From an uncultured Acidimicrobiaceae bacterium (GTDB lineage Bacteria; Actinomycetota; Acidimicrobiia; Acidimicrobiales; Bog-793): a stretch of DNA of 64,000 bases. The position numbers and the translations under genes were made by a program. The DNA lies in contig CAWKGD010000005.1 of assembly GCA_963849105.1 (NCBI GenBank), positions 360,145 through 424,144 of the forward strand. Reading direction: 5' to 3'. A model generated the notes under the pieces. That model did not search any database, was not told the origin of the DNA, and saw only the letters and a program-made list of their open reading frames with translations. Every line of letters starts with the position of its first letter. Position 1 is the stretch's first letter. Below are positions 7,525-52,590 of this stretch, piece after piece.

Positions 7525-10500
7525 ATGGACGGGGATCCGGTGATCTGTTCGAACTGCGCCACGGAGAATCCGATCGAAGCTCGCTTCTGCCTCGAATGTG
7601 GGCAGGGTCTCGTCCAGTCGTGTGCGAACTGCGGAACCGCTCTTCCTCCAGCAGCACGCTTCTGCTTTTCGTGCGGGCAATCCGTAGAGCAGACCTCGCC
7701 GCCTCCCACAGCGCCTGCTGACGGCGCGCAGGCCGCCGCCTCGGTCGCGTCGGCTTTCTCCCGAACGACCGCTGGCGCAACGCAACTCCGCCAGGTTTCC
7801 GTGCTGTTCTGCGATCTCGTTGACTTCACGACCTTGTCAGAGTCACGGGATCCCGAGGAAGTCCGCGAACTCCTGTCCGGTTACTTCGAGCTCGCCCGAT
7901 CGGTCGTCTCCCGCTATGGCGGAACGATCGAGAAGTTCATCGGCGACGCCGTGATGGCGGTGTGGGGCGCGCCCGTCGCAAAGGAAGATGACGCCGAACG
8001 CGCCGTCCGGTCGGCGCTCGACCTCGCCGCGGCGATATCCGCGTACGGCGACGAGCACGGCGTGCCACTCGATGCCCGCATCGGCGTCGCGACCGGCGCG
8101 GCGGCGACGACGACGCCGGAAGAGGGCATCGTCATCGGCGACCGGGTGAACACCGCGGCGCGCATCCAGTCCGTCGCGCCGCCGCGCAGCTGCTTCGTCG
8201 ACGACGCGACGAAGAACTCCACTTCCGCGGCGATCGCCTACCGCGACGCCGGCGAATTCGAATTGAAAGGGAAATCTGAACGCGTCCATCTCAATGAGGC
8301 GATGCGCGTCGTCGCCGGAGTCGGCGGCGCGCTGAAGTCACAGCGGCTCGAGGCACCCTTCGTCGGACGCGACGGCGAATTTCGGCTCGTGAAGGAGCTC
8401 CTCCACACCTCAGCCGAGCAACGTCGCGGCCTCCTCGTATCGATCGTCGGCGTGGCAGGGATCGGCAAGAGTCGGCTCGCCTGGGAGTTCTTCAAATACA
8501 TCGACGGGCTCGCCGACCCCTACTACTGGCACCTCGGACGGTGCCTCGCGTATGGAGACGGCGTCACGTACTGGGCCCTGGCGGAAATGGTGCGCAGCCG
8601 GGCGGGCATCGTGGAAGCTGAGGATCCAGCCTCGGCGAGCGTGAAGCTGCATACGACGGTCGAAACCTACGTCGCCGACGCGGACGAGCGCCGCTGGGTG
8701 GAGGCTCGTCTCGCCCAGCTTCTCGGTCTCGAACCCCGCACGTCGAACGACCGGGAGGACCTCTTTGCCGGGTGGCGCTTGTTCTTTGAGCGCATGGCGG
8801 AGATCAACCCGGTTGTTTTGTCCTTCGAAGACATGCAGTGGGCGGATTCGGCGCTGCTCGACTTCGTCGAATACCTGCTCGACTGGTCACGCAACCACCC
8901 CATCTTCGTGATCACGCTGACCCGTCCCGAGCTGCTCGAACGACAGCCCAACTGGGGCGCCGCGCACCGCAACTTCACCTCGATCGCGCTCGAACCGCTC
9001 GCGCCCCAGGCGATGCGTGCGCTGATCTCTGGACTCGTGCCCGGTCTTCCTGAAGAAGCCCGGGCACGGATCCTCGATCGCGCCGAAGGCATCCCGCTCT
9101 ACGCGGTCGAGACCATTCGCATGCTGATCGACCGCGGCGTGCTCGTGGGAGGCGACGGTGCCTACCGGCCGGCGGGACCGATCGACGCTCTCGAGATACC
9201 CGAGACCCTTCAAGCGCTCATCGCGGCGCGCCTCGACGATTTGAATGCTCTCGAACGCCACGTCATCGAGGACGCCTCCGTTCTCGGCAAGACCTTCACC
9301 CGCAAAGGTCTCTCGCAACTCTCTGGAATCGCGAACGAAGAGCTGTCCGAACCGCTCGAAGCGCTGATCCGCAAGGAACTCGTTTCGCTCCAGGCGGATC
9401 CGCGCTCTCCAGAACGCGGCCATTACATCTTCCTCCAGGACATGGTGCGCATGGTTGCGTACGAGTCGCTCCCGAAGCGGGATCGCAAAGAGAAGCACCT
9501 CGCGGCCGCCTCATATCTTGAAGGTGCCTTCGAGACCGAAGAGGACGAAGTCGTCGAAATCATCGCATCCCACTACCGCAGCGCGTTCGAACTCGCGCCG
9601 GGCGCTGAAGACGCGGGGTCGGTGAAGACACGAGCACGAGAGATGACGATGCGTGCGGGCGAGCGCGCCGCAGCGCTCGCCGACGCCGTTGGCGCGCAAA
9701 GGTATTTCGAACAGGCCATCGGTCTCACCGACGAGGATCTCGAGCGGGCGCACCTTGAAGAGCGCGCCGGTCAAATGGCCCGCCTCGCCGGCCGACCCGA
9801 TGCGGCGAGAACACACTCCGAACGTGCTATCTCGCTTTACGACCTGCTCGGAGAGACGCACCCGAGCGCCCGGGTCTCGGCGCAACTCGGCGAGATCGAC
9901 TTCGACGAGCTTCACATGCAACAAGGGATCGAGAGGATGGAAAGAGCCTTCGCGCTTCTTTCCGAAGACGAACCCGACGCCGATCTCGTGACGCTCGCAG
10001 CACAGCTCGGACGGTTCCATCTCTTTGCCGGGGCACCCGACGTCGGATTCCGGCGCGTCGAGTTCGCGCTCGAGCAAGCCGAAAAGCTCCGACTACGCGA
10101 ACAGTTCGTCCAAGCGCTCAATACGAAGGCGGTGATCCTCGAGTTCAAACGCCGACGCGAGGAGGCAACGCTGCTGCTTCGCCATGCGCTCGCCGTGGCG
10201 CTCTCGGAAGGCCTTTCCCAAGCGGCACTGCGCGCCTACAACAACCTCACCGCATTCCTTTCGGGCGGCGACCAACTCGACGAAATGCTGAAGCTCAGCC
10301 AGCAAGCGATCGAGCTCGCCCAGCGCATCGGTGATCGGGCATGGGAAGCGGGTTTCCTTTTGGGCGATATGAACCTCTGCGTGCTTCTCGGTGAATGGGA
10401 TCGCGCACTTGAGCTCGTATCAGAGATACGCGATCGACCCGGAATCCCGAGCTTCCTGATGACGCGGCTTATGTACGTGCTGCCGGTTCATATCCATCGC

Positions 10501-29524: not shown

Positions 29525-30106
29525 ATGAGCGAGGATCCGGGCGCGCACCTCGTCACTGCTTGGTTCGGTCCGCTCCTCGTCGAGGTCACGACGGGCGATA
29601 TTGCCGACCAGCCTGGTTTCGACGCCGTCGTGAACGCCGCCAACGCGCAGTTGCTTCCGGGGGCGGGCGTCGCCGGCGCGATCCACCGTGCCGCGGGCCC
29701 CGAACTCGCGACCGAGTGCCGACCGCTCGCGCCGATCCGCTCGGGCGAATGCGTCATCACGTCGGGGCACCGCTTGGCGAACCCCTTTGTCATCCACTGC
29801 CTCGGTCCGGTCTACGCCGACGACGACGACCCGAAGGGTCATCTCGCCTCCTGCTTTCGACGCGCGCTCGAGCTCGCCGACGCGCAAGGACTGGCCTCTG
29901 TCTGTTTCCCGGCGATCTCGACGGGGGTGTTTGGCTACCCACTCGATCAGGCGGCGGACGTCGCCGTCGCAGCCGTTGCCGAGTGCGCGCCGTCACTTTC
30001 GGCCGTCCGTCGAGTCCGTTTCGCTCTCTTCGGGGACGCGGCCCTCTCCGCCTTCGCTCGTGCCCTGGGACGCGTCGCTCGCGAACGCAACGGAGACCCC
30101 GACTAG
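29525..30106 (+). CDS. macro domain protein (ADP-ribose / O-acetyl-ADP-ribose hydrolase type)
   Basis: 193 aa from the ATG at 29525. AVVNAANAQLLPGAGVAGAIHRAAGP and FPAISTGVFGYP are classic MacroD/YmdB motifs. Confidence 0.85.
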   Translation: MSEDPGAHLVTAWFGPLLVEVTTGDIADQPGFDAVVNAANAQLLPGAGVAGAIHRAAGPELATECRPLAPIRSGECVITSGHRLANPFVIHCLGPVYADDDDPKGHLASCFRRALELADAQGLASVCFPAISTGVFGYPLDQAADVAVAAVAECAPSLSAVRRVRFALFGDAALSAFARALGRVARERNGDPD

Positions 30107-31971: not shown

Positions 31972-34500
31972 GTGAACCTCGACTCTTGGCGCGTCATCAC
32001 CTACCGGGCTCGGCGAACCCTCGCCCACCGCTTTCGGTCGTACCTCGCGATCACGCTCGTCCTCGGCGCGCTCGGCGGCTTGGCGCTCGGATCGATCGCC
32101 GCCGCACGGAGGACACAGTCCGCCTACCCGCAGTTTCTCGAGAGCACGAATCCCTCGACGCTCCAGGTGACCGTGTGGGAGTACACGACGTCCACCGGCG
32201 CCGTCCCACTTCGCCAACAGGATGCGATGGCGGGCGAGCTCAGCCGGCTGCGGAACGTCCGGCACGTCGAGCGCTTCGTCTACCCGCTCACGGCGCCGAT
32301 CAACGCGAAAGGACAGCTCGAGCGCGATGCGGCGATCTCACCCGTCGCGAGCGTCGCCGGGGATTTCTTCAACGAGGATCGACCGGCCGTCGTCGCAGGA
32401 CGCATGCCGAACCCGGACTCCCCCGGTGAGTTCGCAACAACCCCGCTGGCGGCACGTAGCCAGGGATGGCACGTCGGCGAATCCATCAACTGGGCGGTTT
32501 TTCGCCCGAGCCAGTTCAGTGCAAGTGGCGCGACCCCCGAACACCCCGCGCGAATCGTGCGCGAGAGGCTCGTCGGCCTCGTCGAGTTCAACACGTCGGT
32601 TCTGCAAGACCAGGCGGACGCCAAGACATCGCTCGCCCTCTTCACTCCTGCCTTCGCGCGGGCGGATGCGTTCGGAGGCGGGGGTACAAACTTCGCGATC
32701 CAGCTGCGAAGGCGCGGGTCGGTCGCCGCGACCGAGAAACAGGTCATCGAACTCCTTCCGCCGGGCGCCGTCTATGAGTTCGCGGTCACCGCCGATGCGG
32801 TCGCCAAGGTCGAACGTTCGATCCGTCCTGAGTCAATCGCGCTCGCCGCCTTCGGAGGTGTCGTCGCGATCGCGGCGCTGGCGATCGCGGCGATGGCGAT
32901 TGCGCGATTGATTCGATCCAACGAAGACGACCGTGAGGTGCTGCGCGCGCTCGGGGCAACCCCGCTCGTGCAGATCGGTGACGTCGAGATGGGAGTGCTG
33001 GCGTCGATCCTCGCTGGATGCGCGCTCGCGGTCGGCGTGGCGGTTGCGCTGTCACCGATCGCGCCGCTTGGTTCGGTGCGCGTCGTCTACCCGTTCAAGG
33101 GCTTTGTGTTCGACGGCGCCCCGCTCGGCTTCGGGGTTCTCGCTCTTCTCGTCGTCCTCGTGTCGGTCGCGATCGTGATCGGATGGCGTTTCGCCTCGGC
33201 CAAGCGCTCCGCGGCCTACGTTCCACCGTCCGGATTGGGGACGTGGTCGACACGATTCGCGCGCGCCCTTCGACTGCCGATGCCAGCGGTTCTCGGCGTG
33301 CGGGGGGCGGTGCAGTCGACTCCGGTGCGCACCGCGGCGCCGGCGCGTTCGACGATCTTCGGTGCGACGCTGGCGATCGTCCTCCTCGTGACGACCCTGA
33401 CGTTCGGCGCCAGCCTTTCGACCCTCGTCTCCCATCCCCGCCTGTACGGCTGGAACTGGACGTTCGCGCTCGCGGGCAGCGACGACGTGCCACCCCAGGC
33501 GCTGTCTGCGTTGCACCACGATCGAGACGTGGCCTCATTCAGCGGGTGGAGCACCGGCGCGAACGTCCAAGTCGACGGGCTCACGGTCCCCTCGATGATC
33601 AGCGGTTCGGATCCGACGGTCGCGATGCCCATACTCACCGGCCACCCTGTACGCGCAGCAAATCAGGTCGTCCTCGGTCCGACGACACTCGCCGAAATCC
33701 ACAAGCGCGTCGGCGACACCGTCGTGCTCTCGTACGGAACGAAGGCCGATTACCCGATCTACGTCCCGGCGGAGCGCATGGAGATCGTCGGGACGGCGAC
33801 GTTCCCAGCCGTCGGCGGCATCGGCGGCGCGGCAGTCCTGCACCCTTCGATGGGGACGGGGATGTGGTTCGAGTGGCAGGCGGCGTCGCGCCTACACCGC
33901 TTGGTGATGGGATCCATCTACACGCTCTCCGGACCGAATTTGGCACTGATCCGGATGCGGCCAGGGGTCTCCGCGTCTGCGGCGCGAGCGAATCTCGATC
34001 GGATCGTCTCGTTTTCCGACCGGGTGCTGGCGAAGTACCAGGATGAAGTCTTGTTGCTCAGCGTTCAGCGGCCGGCGGAGATCGTCAACTACCGCTCGAT
34101 GGGCGCCACACCCTCGTACCTCGCATTGGGGGTCGTGCTCGGTGCCGTCATCGCGCTCGCGGCAGCGCTGACGGCTTCGGTCAGAACGCGCCGTCGCGAG
34201 CTCGCTTTGTTGAAGGCGCTCGGCTTCACCGGGCGACAGCTCGCTTGGACGATCGTGTGGCAGGCGACCGTGATCGCGTTGATCGGGATCATCATCGGTG
34301 TCCCGATCGGCATCGCCGTCGGCAGGTGGCTGTGGATCCTGTTCGCTCGCAGCATCGCGGCGGTGCCCGAGCCAGCCGTCCCGGTCCTGAGCATCGTCCT
34401 CGTCGGCATCGGTGCGCTCGTCATCGCCAACTTCGTTGCCGCGATCCCCGGTCGCGTCGCGCGGCGCACGCCGCCCGCTCTCGTGTTGCGAACCGAATGA
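31972..34500 (+). CDS. ABC transporter permease with two FtsX domains (MacB/YbbP-like); no adjacent ATPase
   Basis: 842 aa. TM1 is followed by a large extracytoplasmic domain and a TM bundle, and the unit is repeated. The C-terminal repeat reads RRRELALLKALGFTGRQL..., characteristic of FtsX permeases. Confidence 0.85.
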   Translation: MNLDSWRVITYRARRTLAHRFRSYLAITLVLGALGGLALGSIAAARRTQSAYPQFLESTNPSTLQVTVWEYTTSTGAVPLRQQDAMAGELSRLRNVRHVERFVYPLTAPINAKGQLERDAAISPVASVAGDFFNEDRPAVVAGRMPNPDSPGEFATTPLAARSQGWHVGESINWAVFRPSQFSASGATPEHPARIVRERLVGLVEFNTSVLQDQADAKTSLALFTPAFARADAFGGGGTNFAIQLRRRGSVAATEKQVIELLPPGAVYEFAVTADAVAKVERSIRPESIALAAFGGVVAIAALAIAAMAIARLIRSNEDDREVLRALGATPLVQIGDVEMGVLASILAGCALAVGVAVALSPIAPLGSVRVVYPFKGFVFDGAPLGFGVLALLVVLVSVAIVIGWRFASAKRSAAYVPPSGLGTWSTRFARALRLPMPAVLGVRGAVQSTPVRTAAPARSTIFGATLAIVLLVTTLTFGASLSTLVSHPRLYGWNWTFALAGSDDVPPQALSALHHDRDVASFSGWSTGANVQVDGLTVPSMISGSDPTVAMPILTGHPVRAANQVVLGPTTLAEIHKRVGDTVVLSYGTKADYPIYVPAERMEIVGTATFPAVGGIGGAAVLHPSMGTGMWFEWQAASRLHRLVMGSIYTLSGPNLALIRMRPGVSASAARANLDRIVSFSDRVLAKYQDEVLLLSVQRPAEIVNYRSMGATPSYLALGVVLGAVIALAAALTASVRTRRRELALLKALGFTGRQLAWTIVWQATVIALIGIIIGVPIGIAVGRWLWILFARSIAAVPEPAVPVLSIVLVGIGALVIANFVAAIPGRVARRTPPALVLRTE

Positions 34501-41203: not shown

Positions 41204-43122
<1,919 letters not shown>

Positions 43123-43145
43123 CTTGGGCGGCCTCCTTGGGCTCA

Positions 43146-43172
43146 TTAGCACTCTCTTGATTCGAGTGCCAA
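43146..43172. promoter_or_regulatory. CIRCE operator (HrcA binding site)
   Basis: TTAGCACTC-N9-GAGTGCCAA matches consensus TTAGCACTC-N9-GAGTGCTAA at 17 of 18 arm positions. Located 24 nt upstream of the groES ATG. Confidence 0.85.
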
Positions 43173-43193
43173 CGATACCGCCGCCGAGGTTGA

Positions 43194-43220
43194 CTAGCAA
43201 ACGCCGCGCAGGAGTGCTGG
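43194..43220. promoter_or_regulatory. second, degenerate CIRCE-like element
   Basis: CTAGCAAAC-N9-GAGTGCTGG (13 of 18 arm positions) with correct 9-nt spacing, 21 nt distal to the first element. Confidence 0.4.
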
Positions 43221-43621
43221 AGCCCGCGAAAGCCCTGATGAGCCGCGCGGCCGGTCGTCGGTCCCGATCAGGAATAGCTGGGTGTACGGCTGGACAGGAG
43301 ACCGACGAGCCGCCGATCGAGGACCAGCGCCCCTCGACGAGCTCGCGCTCCGACGTCGAGATATCCGAGAGGGAGAAACCCGATCTGACCGTCATCCGCA
43401 CTGTGGGGGTCTCGGTGCCTGCCTGGCAGGTGCCGGTGACCGCGACCGGCACCGCCTTCGGGCGCGGACTGACGGGATTCGGCGCGCGACTTTGGTTGTG
43501 CCGTCGTCGCGGCACGCGTTGCGTATGGTGTGGCGGGAGGTGTCCGAGTGATCCGAGCGAGAAATACCGTGAGATCGGCGCGCGCACGGCGCCGGCGGCC
43601 CTCTAGGCAACACCCAGGTTG

Positions 43622-44455
43622 ATGCGGATCCACATCTTCGGCACGCGGGGCTCGACGCCCACGCCAGGTCGCGACTTCGTCCGCTACGGCGGCCACACCT
43701 CCTGCCTCGGGGTGGCCTTCGACGGCGGCCTGCCGAGCCTCTTCGTCGACGCCGGCACCGGGATTCGTGGCGCCGACGCCGTCTTTGATGGCCAGCCCTT
43801 TCGCGGGTCGGTCCTTTTCGGCCACCTTCACTGGGACCACACCCAGGGCTTGCCGTTCTTTTCCTCGGCGGACCGAGAGGACGCCCGCGTCGACGCCTAC
43901 CTTCCCGCGCAGGGCGGCGGCGAAGCCGTCTTCGAACGCTTCATGTCGCCGCCCAACTTCCCGATCACGCCGGCCGGCCTGCGCGGGGCGTGGAACTTCC
44001 ATGCCCTCGAGCCCGGCGAGCACGAAGTGGAAGGATTCTCCGTGCTCGCGCTCGACATCCCCCACGGGGGCGGCAGAACCTTCGGCTACCGGATCTCCGA
44101 CGGCCGCTCCGCTTTCGCCTACCTGTCGGACCACTGCCCGACCAGCCTCGGCCCCGGTGCGGACGGCTTCGGCGAGTATCACGACACGGCGCTGGCCCTC
44201 ACCGATGGTTGCGACCTCGTGTTCCACGACTCGCAATACACGCCGGAGGAGCTGCCGGCAAAGGCGCACTACGGCCACGCCGCCTATCCGTACGCGGTGG
44301 GCCTCGCCGCCGCGGCGAAGGCCCGCGAGGTCGTGTTGTTCCACCACGATCCGTCGCGCACCGACGACGAGGTCGACGCGATCTTGAAGGAGTGCGCGGA
44401 CGCTCCCCTGCCCGTGCGCGCCGCCGTTCAGGACACGGTGATCACGCTCGGCTGA
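43622..44455 (+). CDS. MBL-fold metallo-hydrolase (PhnP / class II phosphodiesterase-like)
   Basis: About 277 aa. HLHWDH (HxHxDH) zinc motif, a downstream His (DIPHGG), an Asp/His-rich C-terminal half and LFHHDP. The ATG at 43622 is preceded by an in-frame TTG at 43619. Confidence 0.85.
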   Translation: MRIHIFGTRGSTPTPGRDFVRYGGHTSCLGVAFDGGLPSLFVDAGTGIRGADAVFDGQPFRGSVLFGHLHWDHTQGLPFFSSADREDARVDAYLPAQGGGEAVFERFMSPPNFPITPAGLRGAWNFHALEPGEHEVEGFSVLALDIPHGGGRTFGYRISDGRSAFAYLSDHCPTSLGPGADGFGEYHDTALALTDGCDLVFHDSQYTPEELPAKAHYGHAAYPYAVGLAAAAKAREVVLFHHDPSRTDDEVDAILKECADAPLPVRAAVQDTVITLG

Positions 44456-44511
44456 ATCAGGCGGCCGCATGGGGCACGACCGCCGGGGATTACGTCACGT
44501 AGCCTGTCGCT

Positions 44512-45174
44512 ATGTCGATCCGCGTCGTCCTCGCCGAGGACGACTACCTCGTTCGCGAAGGAGTCGCGCGACTGATCGCCACTGAAGACGACCTCGAGTT
44601 GGTCGCGACGTGTGCCGACTACGCGTCGCTGCTCGAAAGCGTCGACAGCGAACAGCCCGACGTCTTGGTGACCGACATCCGCATGCCGCCGACCGGGACC
44701 GACGAGGGGATCCGCGCGGCGAACGAGTTGCACACGCGCAATCCCGACGTCGGCGTCGTCGTCTTGAGCCAGTACGCCGAACCGAGCTACGCGCTCGCGT
44801 TCTTGGAGAACGGATCGCGCGGACGCGCTTACCTGCTGAAAGAGCGGGTCTCGGATATCAAACAGCTCGCCGACGCGATCAGGCAGACGGCCCAGGGCGG
44901 CTCGGTGATCGATCCGATCGTCGTCGACGCGCTCGTGGCGGCGAGATCGCGGGCGCAGAATTCGCCGTTGCGCCTGCTCACCCCGCGCGAGACCGAGATC
45001 CTCGCCGAGATGGCGACTGGCAAGAACAACGCTGCCGTCGCCGCGGCGCTCGTGCTGTCGGAGCGGGCGGTGGAAAAGCACATCAACTCGATCTTCTCCA
45101 AGCTCGGGCTCTCCCAGGAGCTCGACGTCCATCGCCGGGTGAAGGCCGTCCTGCTCTTTTTGTCCGACCGCTGA
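44512..45174 (+). CDS. NarL/LuxR-family response regulator
   Basis: 220 aa. Receiver motifs LAEDD, LVTDIRMPP and YLLK. C-terminal GerE/LuxR HTH LTPRETEILAEMATGKNNAAVAAALVLSERAVEKHINSIFSKLG. Confidence 0.92.
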   Translation: MSIRVVLAEDDYLVREGVARLIATEDDLELVATCADYASLLESVDSEQPDVLVTDIRMPPTGTDEGIRAANELHTRNPDVGVVVLSQYAEPSYALAFLENGSRGRAYLLKERVSDIKQLADAIRQTAQGGSVIDPIVVDALVAARSRAQNSPLRLLTPRETEILAEMATGKNNAAVAAALVLSERAVEKHINSIFSKLGLSQELDVHRRVKAVLLFLSDR

Positions 45175-45203
45175 GCGGGGACCGTGGTGGTGCCACTCCC
45201 CGC
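45175..45203 (+). terminator. stem-loop directly after the response-regulator stop
   Basis: GCGGGGA..(GTGG-TGGTG-CCAC)..TCCCCGC nested hairpin starting 1 nt after the TGA. No T-tract. Confidence 0.3.
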
Positions 45204-45256
45204 GCCCTCGTGCTGGCAACGTCCGATCTTCCTGCGCAATTTGCAAAAATGGTCCC

Positions 45257-45649
45257 GTGAGCGACGAGAAGGTCGGTGTCCTGATCGTTGACGATCAGGC
45301 GCCGTTCCGCATGGCCGCTGCAGCGGTCGTTCGTGCAACAAAGGGATTCGTCGTGATCGGCGAGGCGCGATCTGGAGAGGAAGCCGTCGAGCTCGCCGCG
45401 GCCCTCGAGCCGCAGCTCGTGCTGATGGACATCAACATGGAGGGCATCGGCGGCATCGAAGCGACGCGACGCATCGTCGACGCCCACCCGTCGGTGCGAG
45501 TCGTTCTTCTTTCGACCTACGACGTCGACAGCCTCCCCGCCGACGCGGCGACGAGCGGCGCGGTCGCGTACGTGCACAAGGAACAGTTCGGTCCTGATGT
45601 TCTGGCGAGCGCCTGGGCGGGAAAGCTCCCACTCACTTTCTCACCCTGA
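45257..45649 (+). CDS. stand-alone receiver (REC-only response regulator)
   Basis: 130 aa from a GTG start. Motifs LIVDDQ, LVLMDINMEG and a VHK lysine. No output domain. The 3' end overlaps the kinase 3' end by 17 nt. Confidence 0.85.
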   Translation: MSDEKVGVLIVDDQAPFRMAAAAVVRATKGFVVIGEARSGEEAVELAAALEPQLVLMDINMEGIGGIEATRRIVDAHPSVRVVLLSTYDVDSLPADAATSGAVAYVHKEQFGPDVLASAWAGKLPLTFSP

Positions 45650-47852
45650 GAGCGGACGGCGCGCTCTGCGCCGCGCCGTTCCCCGATGCCGCCGCCTGAT
45701 CGCTCAACGGCAGACGCCCGGAGATCTTCGTCCCTTTTCCGGGCGACGACTCGACGGTCACCGAGCCACCGATCGCGCCGACGCGGTCGCGCATGTTGAC
45801 GAAGCCCGCGCCGAGCCCTTTCGCGCTCTGCAGATCGAAGCCGGCACCGTCATCGGTGACTTCGAAAAACAACGTCCCTTCGCGTTCGTGGACCCGGACG
45901 ATTGCGCTCGCCCCATCGCCGGCGTGCTTGCCCGCGTTCTGCAACGCCTCCACGCAGCAGAAGTAGACGGCCGCCTCCTCCTCGGGTGAGTAGCGGCCGA
46001 GCCCTTCGGCCTCGACGTCGGTCGGGATCGCGGCGCGGCCCGCCGCGGATCGCAACGCCTCTTCGATACCGCGATCGATGAGCAACGGCGGGTAGATGCC
46101 GTGCGCGAGCGCGCGCAACTCTTGAACCGCGTCCTGCAGCTCGCCGCCGAGCTGATCGAGGATCTCCGCGGATCCTGTCGGGTCGGTCTCGACCAACTGG
46201 CGCGCCAGGCGGACGTTGACGGCCAGCGCGACGAGGTGCTGCTGTGCCCCGTCGTGCAGGTTGCGCTCGATCTGGCGGCGCGCGGCGTCCGACGCGGCAA
46301 CGATGCGCGCCCTCGATGCGCGCAGTTCGTCCGCCTGGCGCCGGACTTCGTCCAAGGACTCCTGCAGCGCCGAGTCCAACTCGACATTGTGGAGCGCCAG
46401 TCCGAGTTGGCGGGCGAGCTCGACAAGCGTCGTGTCATCGTTCTCGGTGAAGCGCTCACCGTCGGACTTGCGCGTCGCGACGACGAGGCCGAGGACGCGC
46501 CCCGAATGCGTCGTCGGCGCGACGCGAAGAGAAAGACCTTCGCGGCCCTCGAGGAGCTTCGGCATCCAGATCTCGAGCCAGGCGTTGCCCGAAACCCCGG
46601 CGCGGGCGACGACCGACTCCTCACTCGAGGAGAGCACGATTCGCTGCGGCGGCGCATCGGGTACCGACACCGCGCGCTCGAGCACCCCACCGGATCCGGT
46701 CCAGATCTCCGCAGAAGAGAGCGCCAGCGTCTTGCGCAGCGACTCGACCACCTGCAGCAAGAGCTCTTCGAGCGGCATCGCCCGGGTGAGGCGGGTCGCG
46801 AAGGTGCGCAGGACGGTGTCGGGCGCCTCGCGCTCGCCGTAGACGACGCGGTTGGCGAACGCGTTCAAGCGCGTCCGTGCCGGGCCGTAAACGAGCGCCG
46901 AGACCGCGGCGGCGATCATCGAAAGGATGAGTAGCGTGCGCTCCGCCTTCGTCGGCGCGTGTCCGATCCCCAAGATGACGATCAAGTAGACGACGACGAC
47001 CACCCCGGTCAGCCCGGCGACCGACACCGACCAGGCGAGCAGCCGGTCGATGCGTGCTGCGAGGCTCGTTAACGCGCCGGCGGCGACGGCGACGGCGATC
47101 GGCACGGTCGCGACGGTGACGACGAGCGCCTCGCGCGTCGGCCAGCCCCAAAAGAGGCGCAACGCCTCCGCGAGCACCACCAGTTCGAGGCCGACCGACA
47201 CGGCCCAGCCGAACCACTGCATCCGCTGGCGCTCGAGTCCCGCCGATCGGCGGTAGCGGCGGCGGGCGCCGACGAGCCCGATCGGCACCGCGACGAGCAG
47301 TTCGACCCCGATCGGCCACAGCGGCAGCGTGGGGCGATCGCTCCAGACGCCGAAACCGACGCCGACGGCGACGAGATAGCCGGCCCCGATCGCGAACCGA
47401 CTCAGCCGGCAGGTGCCGTCCGGCAGTCCGAGCAGGACGTGCATCGTCGACACCGGCAAGATGCAGAGCGCGAGCGGCTCGACGAGGCGGGCCGCCGTGA
47501 CGAGGCCACCCGGGACCGCCGTCCCGTGGGCGTGCGCCTCGACAAGCGCCGCGGAGACGACGGCGGCCGACGCGAAGAGCGTCGCGGACAGAACAAGCAG
47601 TGGCTGGCGTTCCTTCGGCTTCAGCGCGAGGGCGGATCCTCCGGCGAGCGCGAAGCAGCCGACGACGACCGCCCGCACGATCTGGGTCAGCAGATCGCCG
47701 CGATGGTCGACGACTGGAGCCGCGACCGCGCCGGCGAGCGCCGCCACGGCGAGTAGGAGCCCCGGCCCGAAGACGAGTTGCCGCCGCGCCACCGGCGCGG
47801 CCGTCTCGCGGCGCACGCCCAACTGGCTGACGACGATCGGCGCGTCCATCAC
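45633..47852 (-). CDS. sensor histidine kinase: about 10 TM segments + GAF + HisKA_3 + HATPase
   Basis: 739 aa. The N-terminal roughly 330 aa has about ten hydrophobic spans. A GAF-like region follows (LLLQVVESLRKTL...VLGLVVATR). H-box ERNLHDGAQQHLVAL, plus N/G boxes NAGKHA and DDGAGFD..GLG. The start overlaps the ABC ATPase stop. Confidence 0.92.
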   Translation of the reverse strand: MMDAPIVVSQLGVRRETAAPVARRQLVFGPGLLLAVAALAGAVAAPVVDHRGDLLTQIVRAVVVGCFALAGGSALALKPKERQPLLVLSATLFASAAVVSAALVEAHAHGTAVPGGLVTAARLVEPLALCILPVSTMHVLLGLPDGTCRLSRFAIGAGYLVAVGVGFGVWSDRPTLPLWPIGVELLVAVPIGLVGARRRYRRSAGLERQRMQWFGWAVSVGLELVVLAEALRLFWGWPTREALVVTVATVPIAVAVAAGALTSLAARIDRLLAWSVSVAGLTGVVVVVYLIVILGIGHAPTKAERTLLILSMIAAAVSALVYGPARTRLNAFANRVVYGEREAPDTVLRTFATRLTRAMPLEELLLQVVESLRKTLALSSAEIWTGSGGVLERAVSVPDAPPQRIVLSSSEESVVARAGVSGNAWLEIWMPKLLEGREGLSLRVAPTTHSGRVLGLVVATRKSDGERFTENDDTTLVELARQLGLALHNVELDSALQESLDEVRRQADELRASRARIVAASDAARRQIERNLHDGAQQHLVALAVNVRLARQLVETDPTGSAEILDQLGGELQDAVQELRALAHGIYPPLLIDRGIEEALRSAAGRAAIPTDVEAEGLGRYSPEEEAAVYFCCVEALQNAGKHAGDGASAIVRVHEREGTLFFEVTDDGAGFDLQSAKGLGAGFVNMRDRVGAIGGSVTVESSPGKGTKISGRLPLSDQAAASGNGAAQSAPSALRVRK

Positions 47853-48577
47853 TCGACGATCGCGACGTCGATCTCCGCTTCGATCACACGCGCAGTGTGC
47901 TGCTCGACGTCGGATTCGACGCGACCGTCGCGCATATGAACGAGGCGAGACGCCGGGGCTGCGACGTCCTCGTCGTGGGTGACCAAAAGGATCGACTGAC
48001 CACCGGCGTGCAGGCGCCGGAACAGTTCGAGGACTTCGAAGCCGCCTTCGGAGTCGAGGGCGCCGGTCGGTTCGTCGGCGAGAAGGAGCGTCGGCGCGTT
48101 GGCGAGCGCACGCGCGATCGCGAGCCGTTGGCGTTCGCCGCCAGAAAGCAACCCGGGCGCGGCGCGCGCCTTGTCGGCGAGGCCGAGCAGATCGAGAAGG
48201 TCGCGCGCCCGACTCTCTGCTTGCCGCCGCCGCAAACCGGCGACCACGGCGGGGAGCGTCGCGTTCTCAAGGACGGTCATTCCTTCCAAGAGGTTGAAGA
48301 ACTGAAAGACGATGCCGATGTGTCGTCGGCGCATCAATGCGAGTTCGTCCTCGTCCATGCCGGACAATGCTTCGCCGGCGACGAAGATCTCTCCGTCGGT
48401 CGGCACGTCGAGTCCCGCGACGAGATTGAGAAGCGTCGATTTGCCGCATCCTGACGGTCCCATGATCGCGACGAACTCCCCGTCGTCGATCGACAGATCG
48501 AGTCCCCGCAGCGCCCGCACCGGCGCGCCTTCTGTTTCGTAGGTCTTGCGCAACCCGCGCGCCTGCATCACGGTCAT
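47849..48577 (-). CDS. ABC transporter ATP-binding protein (MacB/LolD/FtsE-like), no cognate permease adjacent
   Basis: 242 aa. Walker A GPSGCGKST, Q-loop, signature LSGGERQR, Walker B LLLADEPTGALD, H-loop THD. ATGA overlap with the upstream cyclase gene. Confidence 0.95.
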   Translation of the reverse strand: MTVMQARGLRKTYETEGAPVRALRGLDLSIDDGEFVAIMGPSGCGKSTLLNLVAGLDVPTDGEIFVAGEALSGMDEDELALMRRRHIGIVFQFFNLLEGMTVLENATLPAVVAGLRRRQAESRARDLLDLLGLADKARAAPGLLSGGERQRLAIARALANAPTLLLADEPTGALDSEGGFEVLELFRRLHAGGQSILLVTHDEDVAAPASRLVHMRDGRVESDVEQHTARVIEAEIDVAIVE

Positions 48578-49947
48578 CGATCCGCCCCCGCCACTTGAGC
48601 CGCCACCTTCCAGGCGCCGACCATTCCCGAGCGTCCCTTAACCGTCGACGGCGGGATCGGCTCCGCCACGACCGGATCCTGCAGCGCGGCGTGCGTCGCT
48701 TCGGAGACCACGGTTTCTCCGGGTTCTGCCCACTGCTGAATGCGCTGCGCGAGGTTCACGGTGTCGCCGACGACCGTGTACTCCAAGTGCTCATCCGATC
48801 CGAGCAGCGCCGCCGCCACCTCGCCAGTCGTGATGCCGATGCCGAGGCCGAATTCCGGCAGACCTTCGTCGCGCCAGTGCTCGTTGACCGCGCCTTGTGC
48901 GCGGTGCATCGCCAGCGCGGCGCGCAGCGCCTTGTCGGCGTGGTCTTCGATCGGAACCGGCGCGCCGAAGACGGCCATCACCGCGTCACCGACGAACTGC
49001 ATGACGGTGCCACCTTGCGCGATCACTGCCCTGTTCATCTCGCCGCGGTGCACGTTCAACTGCCCGGCGAGCGCGCTCGGATCGGCGTGTTCGGCGATCG
49101 TCGAGTAGCCGCGGATGTCCGACATCAAGACGCTGACGTTGAGCTGCACCGTCTCGCCCGGACGGCACCCCTCGTCACGAAGCATCCGCGCGACACCGCC
49201 CGGGAGCAGCCGGCTGAGCGTCTCTCCTTGTTCTTCGCGGTCAACGATCGCTTCGTGCAGTCTGCGCAACTGCCGCAGCGACTGGCGCCCGCCGCTGCTC
49301 GCGTCCTTCGCCAGGCGGAGGAACAGCCGCTCGACTGCCTCCGCCGTCGCCGCCGGGGTCGTGTTCGTGGCGACGGCGATCGCCTTGATCGGGCGACCCT
49401 CGGCGACGAGCTTCAAGAGCTGTTCGTCGGATTCGTCGAGCCCGCCCGAATCGGTGACGGGATGGACCATCGACTCGACGATCGCCGGATCGAGCACCGA
49501 ACCCCCCGTGGCCACGGCTCGCACGGCCCGAGCGAGCTGGTCTCCCTCCGCGACGCGGTCCTTCAAGAGGTACGCGTAGCCGGCCGACCCTTCGGCGAGC
49601 AGCGAGATCGCGTACTCGGGATCGTCGAATTGGGAGAGGACGACGATCCCCGTCCCGGGATGGCGCTTGCGGATCTCGTGCGCCGCGTCGATGCCTTCTT
49701 GTTGGAAGTTCGGCGGCATCCTGATGTCGGTGACCACGACTTGCGGCGCGAGACGCTCCGATTCCGACACGAGTTCGTCGTAGTCACCGGCGGTGCCGAC
49801 GAGTTCGAAGTCGCGCTCCAGCCCGAGTAGCGCCTTCACGCCTTCTCTGACGATCAAATTGTCGTCCGCGAGAAAGACGGTGATCGTCGGCCCCCCAACG
49901 CCTCGATCGCGTCCCGCGATCTGCCGTTCCTCCTCGAGCGTAGACAC
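48574..49947 (-). CDS. response regulator with receiver + degenerate LuxR-like HTH + class III nucleotide cyclase output
   Basis: 457 aa. Receiver LADDN, VVTDIRMPP, AYLLKDRV. The middle segment LLKLVAEGRPIKAIA...AEAVERLFLRLAK aligns to the LuxR HTH. Cyclase motifs VLMSDIRGYS, MQFVGDAVMAVFGAP, GDTVNLAQRIQ. Confidence 0.9.
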   Translation of the reverse strand: MSTLEEERQIAGRDRGVGGPTITVFLADDNLIVREGVKALLGLERDFELVGTAGDYDELVSESERLAPQVVVTDIRMPPNFQQEGIDAAHEIRKRHPGTGIVVLSQFDDPEYAISLLAEGSAGYAYLLKDRVAEGDQLARAVRAVATGGSVLDPAIVESMVHPVTDSGGLDESDEQLLKLVAEGRPIKAIAVATNTTPAATAEAVERLFLRLAKDASSGGRQSLRQLRRLHEAIVDREEQGETLSRLLPGGVARMLRDEGCRPGETVQLNVSVLMSDIRGYSTIAEHADPSALAGQLNVHRGEMNRAVIAQGGTVMQFVGDAVMAVFGAPVPIEDHADKALRAALAMHRAQGAVNEHWRDEGLPEFGLGIGITTGEVAAALLGSDEHLEYTVVGDTVNLAQRIQQWAEPGETVVSEATHAALQDPVVAEPIPPSTVKGRSGMVGAWKVAAQVAGADR

Positions 49948-49948
49948 G

Positions 49949-51007
49949 TCAGCTCTGTTCCCGCCGGTGCCCGCTCGCGAGTTCCCTCAGGACGTCGCTG
50001 TCGAACTGGTCGGCCGACGCGAAGGCGAGCTTGCACTTCGTTACTGCTCGCACTGTCGCGGTGCGCTTGCCGCCTTCGAGCGCGGCGCGCTCGCCGTGGA
50101 TCGACCCAGGACCGCACTCGACGAGCGGCTTGCCGTCGACCTCGACGCGCACGACACCGTCGAGGACCAAGAACAGATCGCGGCCGGCGTCTCCTTGCTC
50201 GAGGATCGTTGAGCCTTCCTTCACCGTCGCGACGCGTGGACGCTCGCCGCCACGCATCAGCTCGCCCGACATCTCGCGTTCGAGCGCGGTCTCGATCGCC
50301 GTCGTGAGCGCCCGCGAATCGCGGTCGCCCCATGGACTGTGAACGCCAAACGCGCGGCGGTACCAATTCGAGAAGTCGATCAGTCCGGACTTCTGGGCGA
50401 GCTTGCCGTCCGGCCCGTAGATCCAGTGCCGCGGGAACGAACTCGCGCCGCGCACGTCAATGTGCGTACGCCCGTCAACAAAGATCGTCAGGGCGAGCGT
50501 CGTCCATACCAAGGGCGCCGACAACTGGATGAACGGCGCCCGCCGGACGCGCCGCGGCGCGGGAATGCCCGTCCGCCCGCCGGCCGTCTGGACGAACGTC
50601 ACGCTGCGATCGGTGACGATCGGCTCGGGGCGGATGTCGGGAAGCGGCACCGCCTGGAAGGTCTTCTCGATGCCGGCGAGCCGCACCGTCGTCGAACCGA
50701 TCACCCCACCACCGGACTGTCCGTGGTCGACGATCCGGCCGTTCTCGGTTTCGATGAAGCCGCGCAGTTCATTGGCGAAACGGAAACGGTCCGCCAGGCG
50801 CAGCTCCTCGAGGTCCCTCACGACCTCCGGCGGTGCGTTGTCGTAATGGGTGATCCCGATGTCGAAGGGCGCACGCACCGCGACGCCGCTGATCGCCTCC
50901 GACGGGATCCAAGAGATCGAAGTGACCGAAGCCTCGGTGCGCATCATCGCCCCCCAGGCGGGCTGTCGCCCGCTCCGCCCGCGTCGGACGCGCGGGTTCT
51001 CGTGCAT
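49949..51007 (-). CDS. cyclic-nucleotide-binding (CNB) domain protein with uncharacterised N-terminal domain of about 230 aa
   Basis: 352 aa. The C-terminal roughly 95 aa has a CNB beta-barrel and phosphate-binding cassette (LFLVLDGVVRV...GPGSIHGERAALEGGKRTATVRA). The N-domain is not recognised. The start could be M21/M22 rather than M1. Confidence 0.85.
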   Translation of the reverse strand: MHENPRVRRGRSGRQPAWGAMMRTEASVTSISWIPSEAISGVAVRAPFDIGITHYDNAPPEVVRDLEELRLADRFRFANELRGFIETENGRIVDHGQSGGGVIGSTTVRLAGIEKTFQAVPLPDIRPEPIVTDRSVTFVQTAGGRTGIPAPRRVRRAPFIQLSAPLVWTTLALTIFVDGRTHIDVRGASSFPRHWIYGPDGKLAQKSGLIDFSNWYRRAFGVHSPWGDRDSRALTTAIETALEREMSGELMRGGERPRVATVKEGSTILEQGDAGRDLFLVLDGVVRVEVDGKPLVECGPGSIHGERAALEGGKRTATVRAVTKCKLAFASADQFDSDVLRELASGHRREQS

Positions 51008-51075
51008 TCAGTGTGCTGCCAAACGGCGACTTCGCAAAGGGTGAGAACCGGTGTTCGCGATGGAGGCAGACACCC

Positions 51076-51106
51076 CCAGCTCACCGGGCCCTCCCGCCCC
51101 GGCTGG
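51076..51106 (-). terminator. GC-rich stem-loop just after the oxidoreductase stop, upstream of the cNMP operon
   Basis: CCAG-(c tca)-CCGGG-N9-CCCGG-CTGG read directly from the sequence. No U-tract. Confidence 0.25.
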
Positions 51107-51108
51107 CT

Positions 51109-52590
51109 TCACAGGTCGCGTCGGAGTCGGCCCCGTCCGAGGTCAAAAAGCGCCGTCTCGGCGGCGTGCACCCCGCACATGCCGTGGACGCCGCCGCCCG
51201 GCGGAGTCGACGCGGAGCAGAGGTAGACGCCTTTCAGCGGCGTGCGGTACGGATTCCACCGCACGACGGGCCGGAACAGGGTCTGGAGAAGGCTCGCCGA
51301 GCCACCGGCGATGTCGCCGCCGATGTCGTTCGGGTTCTCCTCCTCCAGTAGCGCTGGACCCCGCACCGCTCTTGTCGCGACGACGTCGCGGAAGCCGGGG
51401 GCGAAGCGCTCGATTTGGGCTTCAATGCGTCCTGTCATGTCGAGGTAAGACCCGTTCGGGACGTGGCAGTACGCCCACAACGTCGCGCGTCCGACGGGCG
51501 CTCGCGACGGATCGATCACGCCCGGTTGCACGACGATGCAGAACGGCCGGTCGGGATGGCGACCCTCGGCGACGTCGGACTCCGACCGCGCGACCTCCTC
51601 GAAGGAGCCACCGACGTGCACCGTTCCCGCCACGCGGCAAGCGGGAGACGTCCAGGGGACGGCCCCATTCAGCGCGTAGTCGACCTTGAAGACGCCGGGT
51701 CCGTATCGGAAGTGCTCGAGCGCGCGCCGGTAGCGCCGCGGAAAAGCGTCACCGACGATCCGGGAAAGAGCGCGAGGTGCGACATCGAAAAGCACGATCT
51801 CGGCGTTGCCCACGTCGGACAACCCGCGCACCCACGACCCGCACGACACCTTCCCGCCGAGCCCTTCCAGCTCTCGTACGAGCGCATCAACAACCTTCGA
51901 GCTCCCGCCGCGCACGACCGGCCATCCGGTCGAGTGCGCGAGCGTCGTGAGCAGCAGTGCGAACGATGCCGTCAAGGGTTGATCGAGCGAGAGCATCGAG
52001 TGCGCAGCGACGCCTGCAATGAGTCCGCGCCCCTCGTCGGAAGAGAACCGTTGTGCAAGATGGCGAGCGGAACGGAGACCGAGCGCGCCAAAGCGCGCCA
52101 TCGTCAACGGATGCGCAGGCGGTTTGCGGATCGGTGCGAGCACCGTCGGCAGGAACTGATCGCGGTGGCGCACCATCCACGAAAAGAGTCGCCGGTACGG
52201 ATCACGATCCGCGCCGAGCGATTCCGCAGTGTCGGCGACGCTCCCCCGCACCGCGCCAGCCCGTCCACCGTCGAGCGGATGGGCGACCGCAACCTCGGGC
52301 ACCAAGAGTTCGACGCCGAGTGCCGGCCAGTCCTCGGCACGGAAGAACGGCGACTCGGCCAATAGCCCATGCACTGCCGAGCAGAGGTCGTGAACGAAGC
52401 CCGGTTCGGTCACCTCGGCGCTGCGACACCCACCACCGGGCTTCGACGACCCCTCGAGGACCTCGACGTCCAGGCCGTGTCGGGCGAGCTCGATCGCCGC
52501 CGCGAGCCCGTTCGGGCCGGATCCGACGACGACCACCCGGTTCGGCTTCGTTCCGATGCTTCGCCTAGGAAGCGCCGATGGTGATCCCAC
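51109..52590 (-). CDS. phytoene-desaturase-family NAD(P)/FAD-dependent oxidoreductase (CrtI-like)
   Basis: 493 aa with dinucleotide fold VVVVGSGPNGLAAAIELARHGLDVEVLE and a C-terminal GGGVHG motif. Confidence 0.88.
   Translation of the reverse strand: MGSPSALPRRSIGTKPNRVVVVGSGPNGLAAAIELARHGLDVEVLEGSSKPGGGCRSAEVTEPGFVHDLCSAVHGLLAESPFFRAEDWPALGVELLVPEVAVAHPLDGGRAGAVRGSVADTAESLGADRDPYRRLFSWMVRHRDQFLPTVLAPIRKPPAHPLTMARFGALGLRSARHLAQRFSSDEGRGLIAGVAAHSMLSLDQPLTASFALLLTTLAHSTGWPVVRGGSSKVVDALVRELEGLGGKVSCGSWVRGLSDVGNAEIVLFDVAPRALSRIVGDAFPRRYRRALEHFRYGPGVFKVDYALNGAVPWTSPACRVAGTVHVGGSFEEVARSESDVAEGRHPDRPFCIVVQPGVIDPSRAPVGRATLWAYCHVPNGSYLDMTGRIEAQIERFAPGFRDVVATRAVRGPALLEEENPNDIGGDIAGGSASLLQTLFRPVVRWNPYRTPLKGVYLCSASTPPGGGVHGMCGVHAAETALFDLGRGRLRRDL

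Follow-up and report, generated by a model that had tools for sequence, protein, structure and literature searches.

A conserved gene cluster of uncultured Acidimicrobiia and Dormibacterota that probably links a two-component system to cyclic nucleotide signalling

Receiver-cyclase fusions of the cyanobacterial CyaC type and of myxobacteria carry an N-terminal receiver (REC) domain together with a class III nucleotidyl cyclase domain, and are presumed to be controlled by phosphorylation-driven dimerisation. In Pycsar systems, a class III-like cyclase, PycC, is encoded beside an effector in which a cyclic nucleotide-binding (CNB) sensor is joined to a TIR or transmembrane (TM) domain (PMC11224242). 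Detoxification modules of the Bce type (BceAB-BceRS) couple the genes of a MacB/FtsX-family transporter, in which the permease has 10 TM segments and a large extracytoplasmic domain, to that of a histidine kinase, which adjoins the ATPase gene. BceS is a 2-TM intramembrane-sensing kinase that acts with an OmpR-type regulator. The mycobacterial DosS/DosT-DosR (DevR) system uses GAF-containing HisKA_3 kinases and a regulator of the NarL/LuxR type. Here we describe a gene cluster that shares features with each of these. It lies at positions 43619-52590 of a 64,000-nucleotide stretch of DNA from an uncultured Acidimicrobiaceae bacterium (GenBank assembly GCA_963849105.1, contig CAWKGD010000005.1, positions 360,145 to 424,144), hereafter called the window. 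The cluster is real and is conserved in uncultured soil Acidimicrobiia and Dormibacterota. Its genes probably encode a branched two-component pathway, the main non-transcriptional output of which would be a cyclic mononucleotide (cNMP).

A sequence-only reading of this DNA had proposed that seven genes at 43619-51007 form a self-contained module for two-component and cyclic nucleotide signalling. The seven open reading frames (ORFs) were found at the coordinates that it gave, and Pfam confirmed every one of its domain assignments. Its limits were too narrow, as the conserved block reaches an oxidoreductase gene at 52590 and cis-acting elements had also been left out. The genes of the block are as follows.

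43619-44455, plus strand: metallo-beta-lactamase (MBL)-fold hydrolase (Pfam Lactamase_B_2, E 6e-15)
44512-45174, plus strand: NarL/LuxR-type response regulator (Pfam Response_reg and GerE)
45257-45649, plus strand: single-domain receiver, REC-only (Pfam Response_reg alone, E 1e-21)
45633-47852, minus strand: sensor histidine kinase (Pfam GAF; HisKA_3, E 4e-14; HATPase_c, E 4e-11)
47849-48577, minus strand: ATP-binding cassette (ABC) ATPase (Pfam ABC_tran, E 4e-35)
48574-49947, minus strand: response regulator-cyclase (Pfam Response_reg; Guanylate_cyc, E 9e-24)
49949-50947, minus strand (longest ORF to 51007): CNB protein (C-terminal Pfam cNMP_binding, E 5e-16)
51109-52590, minus strand: CrtI/CrtO-family FAD oxidoreductase (Pfam NAD_binding_8 and Amino_oxidase)

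The three junctions from the CNB gene to the kinase gene were exactly as previously described. The TGA of the CNB gene (49951-49949) is separated by a single C from the GTG of the cyclase gene (49947-49945), the cyclase and ATPase genes share ATGA (48577-48574), and the ATPase and kinase genes share GTGA (47852-47849). The ATPase gene is thus predicted to be translationally coupled to both the cyclase and kinase genes. The REC-only and kinase genes are convergent, and their 3' ends overlap by 17 nt (45633-45649).

Relatives of the CNB protein were sought in one genome per species. At least 469 genomes contained a relative, and the best 80 loci were analysed, which by title comprised 54 Acidimicrobiia-type loci, 14 from Dormibacterota, 9 from unspecified Actinomycetota or Actinomycetes and 3 others. 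Each window protein was compared with these 80 loci by tblastn, and linkage was counted in the 44 species-level loci with at least 8 kb on each side of the CNB gene, at a distance of no more than 10 kb from it. An ortholog of the cyclase was linked to the CNB gene in 40 of the 44 loci, followed by orthologs of the REC-only protein (34), the LuxR regulator (33), the ABC ATPase (31), the CrtI-family oxidoreductase (30), the kinase (29) and the MBL protein (28). Orthologs were 55-95% identical, and synteny and promoter were conserved across dozens of species among the 80 loci. All window ORFs from position 30000 onwards were screened in this way, and wide conservation was limited to the block from the MBL gene to the oxidoreductase gene, 43619-52590. 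The flanking genes (groES/EL, tsaD and others) were common to the three closest relatives only. Thus, it appears that the block moves as a unit through different genomic contexts.

The same gene set was carried in at least two orders, that of the window and that of locus L056. In the latter, rightward LuxR and REC genes face leftward kinase, ABC and cyclase genes, and beyond these rightward CNB, MBL and oxidoreductase genes face a leftward gene for an FtsX permease. Since this gene set recurs in dozens of species-level genomes in at least two orders, the arrangement is far beyond chance. This outcome of the gene-neighbourhood search bears out the earlier suggestion that the parts form a functional unit and are not chance neighbours. 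The junctions were conserved as well: the gap between the CNB and cyclase genes was 0-2 nt in 21 of 22 co-directional loci, the 4-nt overlap of the ABC and kinase genes was found in 24 of 39 loci, and the MBL gene, where directly downstream of the CNB gene, followed it within 5 nt in 11 of 11 loci, all of these gaps being biased towards small values because the in-frame start nearest the upstream stop was taken.

Residues 25-325 of the kinase contained 9-10 hydrophobic segments in a crude hydropathy scan, in agreement with the approximately ten TM segments suggested previously, and the H-box of the kinase reads LHDGAQQ. No Pfam family passed the threshold in the TM region; PAF-AH_p_II, a sub-threshold match there (E 0.24, 10 bits), was spurious. 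Only 26 homologs of the TM region were detectable, and those with a named source were metagenome-assembled genomes (MAGs) of Acidimicrobiales or Actinomycetota. The membrane domain of the kinase is thus unannotated and restricted to this lineage. MctRS, the top NCBIfam name, belongs to an unrelated rhizobial system that matched the transmitter and receiver domains only. The receiver of the LuxR regulator, which had been noted as a close paralog of the cyclase receiver, was indeed 51% identical to it over 141 residues (E 2e-45), which implies that the two share a kinase. The REC-only protein was a distant relative (28%). The acidic pocket, phospho-acceptor Asp, Ser/Thr and Lys expected of a receiver were present in the LuxR regulator and the cyclase (DD...D(IRMPP)...S...K) and in the REC-only protein (DD...D(INM)...S/T...K). 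The cluster thus combines a kinase bearing HisKA_3 and HATPase_c with receivers whose residues are intact, as is expected of a two-component system. The two kinases of the Dos system have a counterpart in the Dormibacterota loci, which likewise contain two. DosS and DosT differ in being soluble haem sensors with tandem GAF domains, and the Dos system has no cyclase, CNB or ABC parts.

It is conceivable that two independent systems share one operon. In such a case, a Bce/MacB-like module for envelope stress or export (ATPase, permease, kinase, LuxR regulator and REC) would lie next to a separate cAMP module (cyclase and CNB protein, possibly with the MBL protein), and the cyclase receiver would be served by another kinase or would act independently of phosphorylation. 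Stand-alone modules that combine an FtsX/ABC transporter with a HisKA_3 kinase and a LuxR regulator are common. In addition, the cyclase/CNB pair occurs in Dormibacterota without the ABC, MBL and oxidoreductase genes, and in distant lineages without any two-component genes. Nevertheless, we consider two separate systems unlikely. The cyclase receiver is a close paralog of the receiver of the cluster's own LuxR regulator, the cyclase gene is packed between the CNB and ATPase-kinase genes with junctions of 1-4 nt that recur in relatives, and the Dormibacterota loci that lack the ABC gene still retain two HisKA_3 kinases, a REC protein and a LuxR regulator beside the REC-cyclase and CNB protein.

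The cyclase in the preferred branched pathway consists of a receiver, a degenerate LuxR-type helix-turn-helix (HTH) linker and a class III nucleotidyl cyclase domain. An HTH had been assigned here previously, and the alignments with NarL-family profiles and the DevR structure do extend as far as residues ~200-217; however, the element is a relic, with Ala and Glu at recognition-helix positions and no match to Pfam GerE. DevR (PDB 3c3w) aligned with cyclase residues 22-217 (E 2e-16). The cyclase also aligned to Pseudomonas aeruginosa CyaB (3r5g) and Synechocystis Cya2 (2w01), the metal-binding Asp pair lying in SDIRG and FVGDA and the transition-state Asn and Arg in TVNLAQR. The first substrate-selecting position, which is Lys in CyaB and Glu in the guanylyl cyclase Cya2, is Gln here, and the second is Thr, a residue shared with class IIIb cyclases. 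The six positions read D-Q-D-T-N-R in 52 of 65 orthologs and D-Q-D-S-N-R in 12, and one ortholog was truncated. The truncated protein retained both Asp residues and the Gln, which is therefore invariant in all 65, and D, D, N and R were present in 64 of the 64 orthologs scored at every position. Judging from these residues, the cyclase should be active. An ortholog in L077, a closed MAG chromosome of Dormibacterota, was split into overlapping ORFs (8559-9416 and 9184-9864, minus strand), which represents either an assembly frameshift or a pseudogene.

The substrate-selecting residues do not form a canonical pair, which for ATP would be Lys and either Asp or Thr, and for GTP would be Glu and one of Cys, Ser and Gly. 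Thus, the protein can be classed as a class III cyclase and is not assignable as an adenylyl or guanylyl cyclase from its sequence. The product is most likely cAMP, while the Gln/Thr pair leaves the nucleotide open. The other REC-cyclase fusions share with this protein the intact Asp pair, Asn and Arg, but have Lys/Thr or Lys/Asp where Gln/Thr(Ser) is found here. In addition, the receiver part here is a complete NarL-type regulator in which the decayed LuxR HTH serves as the linker, and the operon adds a dedicated CNB receptor, a MacB-type ATPase and a kinase. To our knowledge, the sole precedent for Gln at the ATP-specifying site is Rv0386 of Mycobacterium tuberculosis. Rv0386 is reported to be a class III cyclase of the LuxR family that selects its substrate through a Gln/Asn pair (Castro et al. 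2005, cited in PMC3466318). It likewise has Gln at the position of the ATP-specifying Lys and is likewise tied to a LuxR-type module. Its domain order is cyclase, ATPase and C-terminal functional LuxR HTH, with no receiver, in contrast to the order REC, HTH relic and cyclase found here. Its second specificity residue is Asn rather than Thr or Ser, and no orthology is implied. In pyrimidine cyclases, the same residue neighbourhood selects the base, and the -4 specificity residue is non-canonical (PMC11224242).

The receptor encoded upstream of the cyclase gene had been assigned a start at 51007. Its homologs are 331-332 residues long and begin with MRxE, which matches Met 2 or Met 3 of the longest ORF, and thus the start is most likely 50947 or 50944. 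A GGGGGG run resembling a Shine-Dalgarno sequence precedes the ATGs at these positions, and a start at 51007 would lie too close to the predicted -10 element at 51015-51010. Homologs of the CNB protein numbered more than 7,900. The best 120 shared at least 63% identity with it, and the sources named among them were without exception Acidimicrobiales MAGs. The phosphate-binding cassette, G-E-R-A...R-T-A, was invariant across CNB homologs. Phospho-acceptor, cyclase catalytic and cNMP cassette residues are thus all intact in the locus, in support of the sequence-only reading. In CRP/FNR-type regulators, the CNB domain is followed by an HTH; here the CNB domain lies at the C-terminus, and the whole protein showed no HTH.

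The N-terminal domain of the CNB protein (hereafter N-domain), of ~220 residues, is very strongly conserved and contains the motifs SWIPSEA, HYD, RFRFAN, QTxGGRTGxPxPRR, FPRHW and PWG. Alone, it matched 1,211 clusters at 50% identity in an exhaustive HMMER scan. It had no match in Pfam, even at E 10, or in NCBIfam, and searches of PDB sequences by phmmer and by profile returned noise only, such as antibody chains. An AlphaFold2 model of the domain was a soluble, beta-rich fold (pLDDT 77) with no match to TIR. Foldseek comparison of this model with the PDB gave one match with E below 0.001, the protein of unknown function 3c5p, with a TM-score of ~0.46-0.51 and an rmsd above 10 A, and comparison with viral structures gave nothing. 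Faint matches to lipid-binding folds (E ~1) were not usable, and when the full-length CNB model was compared with the PDB, matches to the CNB domain swamped the rest. A Pfam scan of 150 N-domain representatives for other architectures found sporadic single cases only. The CNB domain was present in 37 of these 150, a low count that is due to fragments, as the domain was present in 6 of 8 full-length members. Since the N-domain is fused to a cNMP sensor in nearly all full-length members checked, its activity is very likely controlled by a cyclic nucleotide. With its glycine-rich QTxGGRTG loop and numerous invariant Arg, His and Asp positions, it may either act as an enzyme or bind an anionic ligand.

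CNB homologs at 40-45% identity still adjoined a class III cyclase gene, with different cyclase N-termini. In locus L082, a DUF4062-cyclase gene overlaps the CNB gene, and in the cultured Aquipuribacter nitratireducens (L084) a membrane-anchored cyclase is encoded divergently from it. The cyclase of A. nitratireducens has the canonical ATP-selecting Lys, which is a mild argument for cAMP as the ligand of the family. In a Georgenia homolog, the CNB domain was sub-threshold and no cyclase was linked, and thus linkage is lost where the sensor decays. The deepest conserved unit was the cyclase and CNB protein only, which looks like an ancient core. A history in three layers fits best: an ancient pair of cyclase and N-domain-CNB protein, its capture by a NarL-type two-component system in the branch of Acidimicrobiia and Dormibacterota, and, in Acidimicrobiia, the subsequent addition of a transporter of the MacB type along with the MBL protein and the flavoprotein. 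A bolder proposal, which we find doubtful, is that the pair is an ancient and widespread two-gene second-messenger cassette, in which the N-domain would be a new cNMP-controlled enzyme or effector and the Gln/Thr(Ser) cyclase of Acidimicrobiia and Dormibacterota might yield a product different from plain cAMP or cGMP, for example a pyrimidine or mixed-specificity cNMP. If so, it would be a housekeeping counterpart of Pycsar-type signalling that is driven by a two-component system. As A. nitratireducens is a cultured carrier of the two-gene core, genetics are feasible.

As a separate observation, the CNB gene in the distant loci L082 (2343-10629) and L083 (6792-11011) neighbours genes for a DUF4062-cyclase and a Tle1-like lipase-fold protein. 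The same stretches contain large BTAD-AAA_16-TPR (STAND-like) regulators, a context more like that of conflict or defence than the context in the window.

The adjacency of a class III-like cyclase and a CNB sensor-effector is the grammar of Pycsar, and an anti-phage role can be envisaged in which the cyclase fires on infection and the CNB-effector arrests or kills the cell. Consistent with this idea, the PADLOC model PycC matched the cyclase (E 3e-21) and PycTIR matched the CNB domain (E 8e-11), the specificity residue at position -4 is non-canonical, as it is in pyrimidine cyclases (PMC11224242), and the DUF4062-cyclase of L082 has STAND-like and Tle1-like neighbours. However, these PADLOC matches were no stronger than generic Pfam domain homology, and the effector has neither a TIR nor a TM domain that could serve in killing. 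Moreover, the input is a two-component system of a housekeeping style, and the cluster is flanked by housekeeping genes (groES/EL, tsaD and an IMPDH-like gene) in DNA of even GC content, the G+C of the window being 60-71% throughout. The core-like conservation of sequence, synteny and promoter is also unlike the sporadic distribution and fast evolution of defence islands. Abortive infection of the Pycsar kind is therefore very improbable for this cluster, and we retain the branched signalling pathway.

The ATPase of the operon matched the MacB, LolD and FtsE models of NCBIfam (E 1e-65 to 3e-61), and its Walker A, signature, Walker B and H-loop motifs were intact. ATPases of the MacB/FtsE type work with FtsX-fold permeases. 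The sequence-only reading had taken the ATPase for a free-standing motor lacking a permease. This was true within the operon, but a single ABC ATPase and a single FtsX permease are encoded in the whole window, and the latter has no adjoining ABC ATPase.

31972-34500, plus strand: duplicated FtsX-family permease, 842 residues (Pfam FtsX, E 5e-19)

This orphan, which has two large extracytoplasmic loops, lies 13 kb from the cluster ATPase. In L080 and L052, a permease gene stands between the ATPase and kinase genes, and in L008, L009, L022, L028, L056 and others an FtsX permease gene lies beyond the oxidoreductase gene. A homologous permease was found in 20 of 47 loci with an ATPase ortholog, compared with 2 of 33 without. 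From this co-occurrence in relatives, the permease at 31972-34500 is likely the membrane partner of the cluster ATPase, in which case the description of the module as self-contained, and of the ATPase as a motor acting alone, does not stand. Most simply, the operon would have encoded a MacB-type transporter from which the permease gene has been relocated, while the ATPase remains translationally coupled to the kinase. Compared with the Bce type, the kinase here has ~10 TM segments and a GAF domain rather than two TM segments, it belongs with a LuxR-type regulator to the HisKA_3/LuxR class and not with an OmpR-family one, the permease gene is remote, and a cNMP branch is present.

The ATPase could also drive the 10-TM domain of the kinase directly, with no FtsX protein, which would make the kinase a new kind of ABC-energised sensor and the remote permease unrelated. 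The recurrent 4-nt overlap of the ATPase and kinase genes, here and in relatives, agrees with such direct action, as do the unannotated 10-TM domain and the fact that most loci show no permease within 10 kb. We consider it possible but rather improbable, and less likely than pairing with the FtsX permease. The established pairing of MacB/FtsE-type ATPases with FtsX-fold membrane domains, the presence of one orphan of each in the window, the permease genes between ATPase and kinase in two relatives, and the enrichment of permeases where the ATPase is present all argue against it. In addition, the kinase TM domain is unrelated to FtsX, as the hhalign probability was 1% when 35 kinase N-termini were compared with 20 permeases, and thus a fused FtsX permease in the kinase was rejected.

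An MBL-fold enzyme that might degrade the second messenger had also been suggested. The HxHxDH motif (HLHWDH) was invariant in 33 orthologs, and phosphodiesterase chemistry is likely. A profile of the 33 orthologs matched RNase Z/ElaC (E 1e-11) far better than Apyc1 (7u2s; E 0.25), and the protein scored 24 bits against NCBIfam NF041851, 'cyclic nucleotide-degrading phosphodiesterase', which has a cutoff of 400. Its status as a proven cNMP phosphodiesterase is thus not supported, as it has no family-level similarity to the proven ones, and a role in cNMP degradation is a plausible guess. The oxidoreductase matched CrtO-like (E 2e-29) and crtI_fam models of NCBIfam, both far below cutoff. In loci of the L056 type, the CNB, MBL and oxidoreductase genes form a packed run, and where they do, the three products may act on one pathway.

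Comparison of the regions upstream of the CNB genes of relatives revealed a promoter architecture with the order, 5' to 3', of an element M2, 7-9 nt, an element M1 that abuts a -35-like TTGG, 17 nt and a TAnnnT-type -10. The elements in the window are as follows.

51063-51077, minus strand: M2, GGGGGTGTCTGCCTC, a GC-rich imperfect palindrome upstream of M1, located with GGGGRTGYCWSCCYC
51039-51054, minus strand: M1, ACACCGGTTCTCACCC, the only perfect match in the window
45186-45200, plus strand: M2-like element, GGTGGTGCCACTCCC, between the LuxR and REC genes, upstream of the REC-only gene

M1, which has the consensus RCACCNGTYNTCACCC in relatives, abuts a -35-like TTTGCG (51038-51033) in the window, followed after 17 nt by the -10 CACACT (51015-51010). 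The CNB operon therefore has a predicted promoter of its own, and the oxidoreductase gene is probably transcribed separately. In 1.33 Mb of related loci, M1 had 34 matches, of which 32, distributed over 29 loci, preceded a CNB start by 48-119 nt. Because M1 can be only 48 nt from the start codon, many CNB genes of relatives look leaderless. The M2 consensus, GKGRTGCYNSCMMC, gave 72 matches, compared with ~17 in shuffled sequences; 34 of these were upstream of CNB genes (30 loci), 19 were upstream of REC-only orthologs (17 loci), and the remainder was at about chance level. As M2 was derived from regions where it was also counted, its sharing between two transcription units is the observation, rather than the raw enrichment. 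The M2-like copy at 45186-45200 departs from the search pattern at two positions and does not reach significance by window statistics alone, and no further convincing copies of M1 or M2 were found in the window, for example near the permease gene. The LuxR-type regulator is a natural candidate for binding the M2 palindrome.

Two or three repeated G(T/G)GCTG(C/T)CA boxes were observed upstream of the REC genes in L005-L028, in the region that corresponds to 45175-45256 of the window. In relatives, a CAGGAT-type -10 lies about 6-7 nt before the GTG start of the REC gene, and such proximity suggests a leaderless mRNA.

Taken as one pathway, the components could act as follows. The membrane kinase, with its ~10 TM segments, GAF and HisKA_3 domains, would autophosphorylate in response to a membrane or envelope cue, probably acting with a MacB-type transporter made of the operon ATPase and the remote FtsX permease. 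This link would resemble that of Bce-type transporters, which report their activity to a kinase. The phosphoryl group would pass to three receivers: the LuxR regulator, the single-domain REC and the REC-cyclase. The LuxR regulator might bind M2, M1 or both upstream of the CNB operon, as well as upstream of the REC gene, providing feedback, and the single-domain REC could serve as a phosphate sink or modulator. Phosphorylation of the cyclase would dimerise its NarL-type receiver and so assemble the obligately dimeric class III domain, switching on cNMP synthesis. The cNMP would then bind the CNB domain of the co-translated receptor and control its conserved N-domain, and the best candidate for terminating the signal is the MBL phosphodiesterase, with its resemblance to RNase Z/ElaC.

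Several observations weigh against this pathway. The substitution of Gln for Lys or Glu means that the cyclase product is not readable from the sequence, the N-domain is without a detectable homolog of known function in sequence or structure searches, and the MBL protein resembles RNase Z more closely than it does any proven cNMP phosphodiesterase. The Dormibacterota loci lack the ABC, MBL and oxidoreductase genes and have different kinases, which suggests that these parts are accessory and not integral, and many loci show no permease over a distance of 10 kb. Both copies of M2 in the window differ from the consensus, M2 was defined and counted in the same regions, the junction statistic favours small gaps, and almost all carriers are uncultured MAGs.

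The sequence-only reading had also taken the system to be undescribed. The cluster was not found in the searchable literature, and the combination of genes, the clade of Gln/Thr cyclases, the N-domain family and the promoter elements are likewise not described there. Nevertheless, signalling from kinase to REC-cyclase to cNMP to CNB protein follows a known overall logic, and none of the catalytic families is unusual. Acidimicrobiia and Dormibacterota abound in soil and peat, yet almost none of their members have been cultured. We know of essentially nothing reported on signal transduction in these lineages. The cluster gives them a pathway with clear limits and strong conservation, and it offers a new domain family (over 1,200 clusters at 50% identity), a clade of cyclases in which the main substrate-selecting residue is invariably Gln, and a defined promoter/operator architecture that is testable in vitro. 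It may also provide a second example, this one outside Firmicutes, of a histidine kinase to which a MacB-type transporter is wired. Even if the effector proves to be ordinary, thousands of proteins now called 'hypothetical' or 'cyclic nucleotide-binding domain-containing' would be annotated.

A scan of the whole window with Rfam returned no families, a generic sigma-70 scan returned no promoters, and nine terminator-like sites compared with 5.2 +/- 2.6 expected were uninformative. The 3' ends of the REC-only and kinase genes overlap or nearly abut in L001 and L016, similar to the window, and the overlap could allow transcriptional interference or a shared terminator. The spacer of ~450 nt from the groES promoter region to the MBL gene (43173-43618) contains only shadow ORFs, and parts of it (GTTGCGTATGGTGTGGCGGGAGGTG...) are kept in L001; it may be the promoter or leader of the MBL-LuxR-REC unit. 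Just upstream of groES, at 43146-43172 of the window, lies a near-perfect CIRCE/HrcA operator, TTAGCACTC-N9-GAGTGCCAA, which has one mismatch to the consensus. The likely start of groES is the ATG at 43122, which has a GGAGG ribosome-binding site, and the 252-residue ORF at 42829-43587 overextends the real groES, of ~98 residues.

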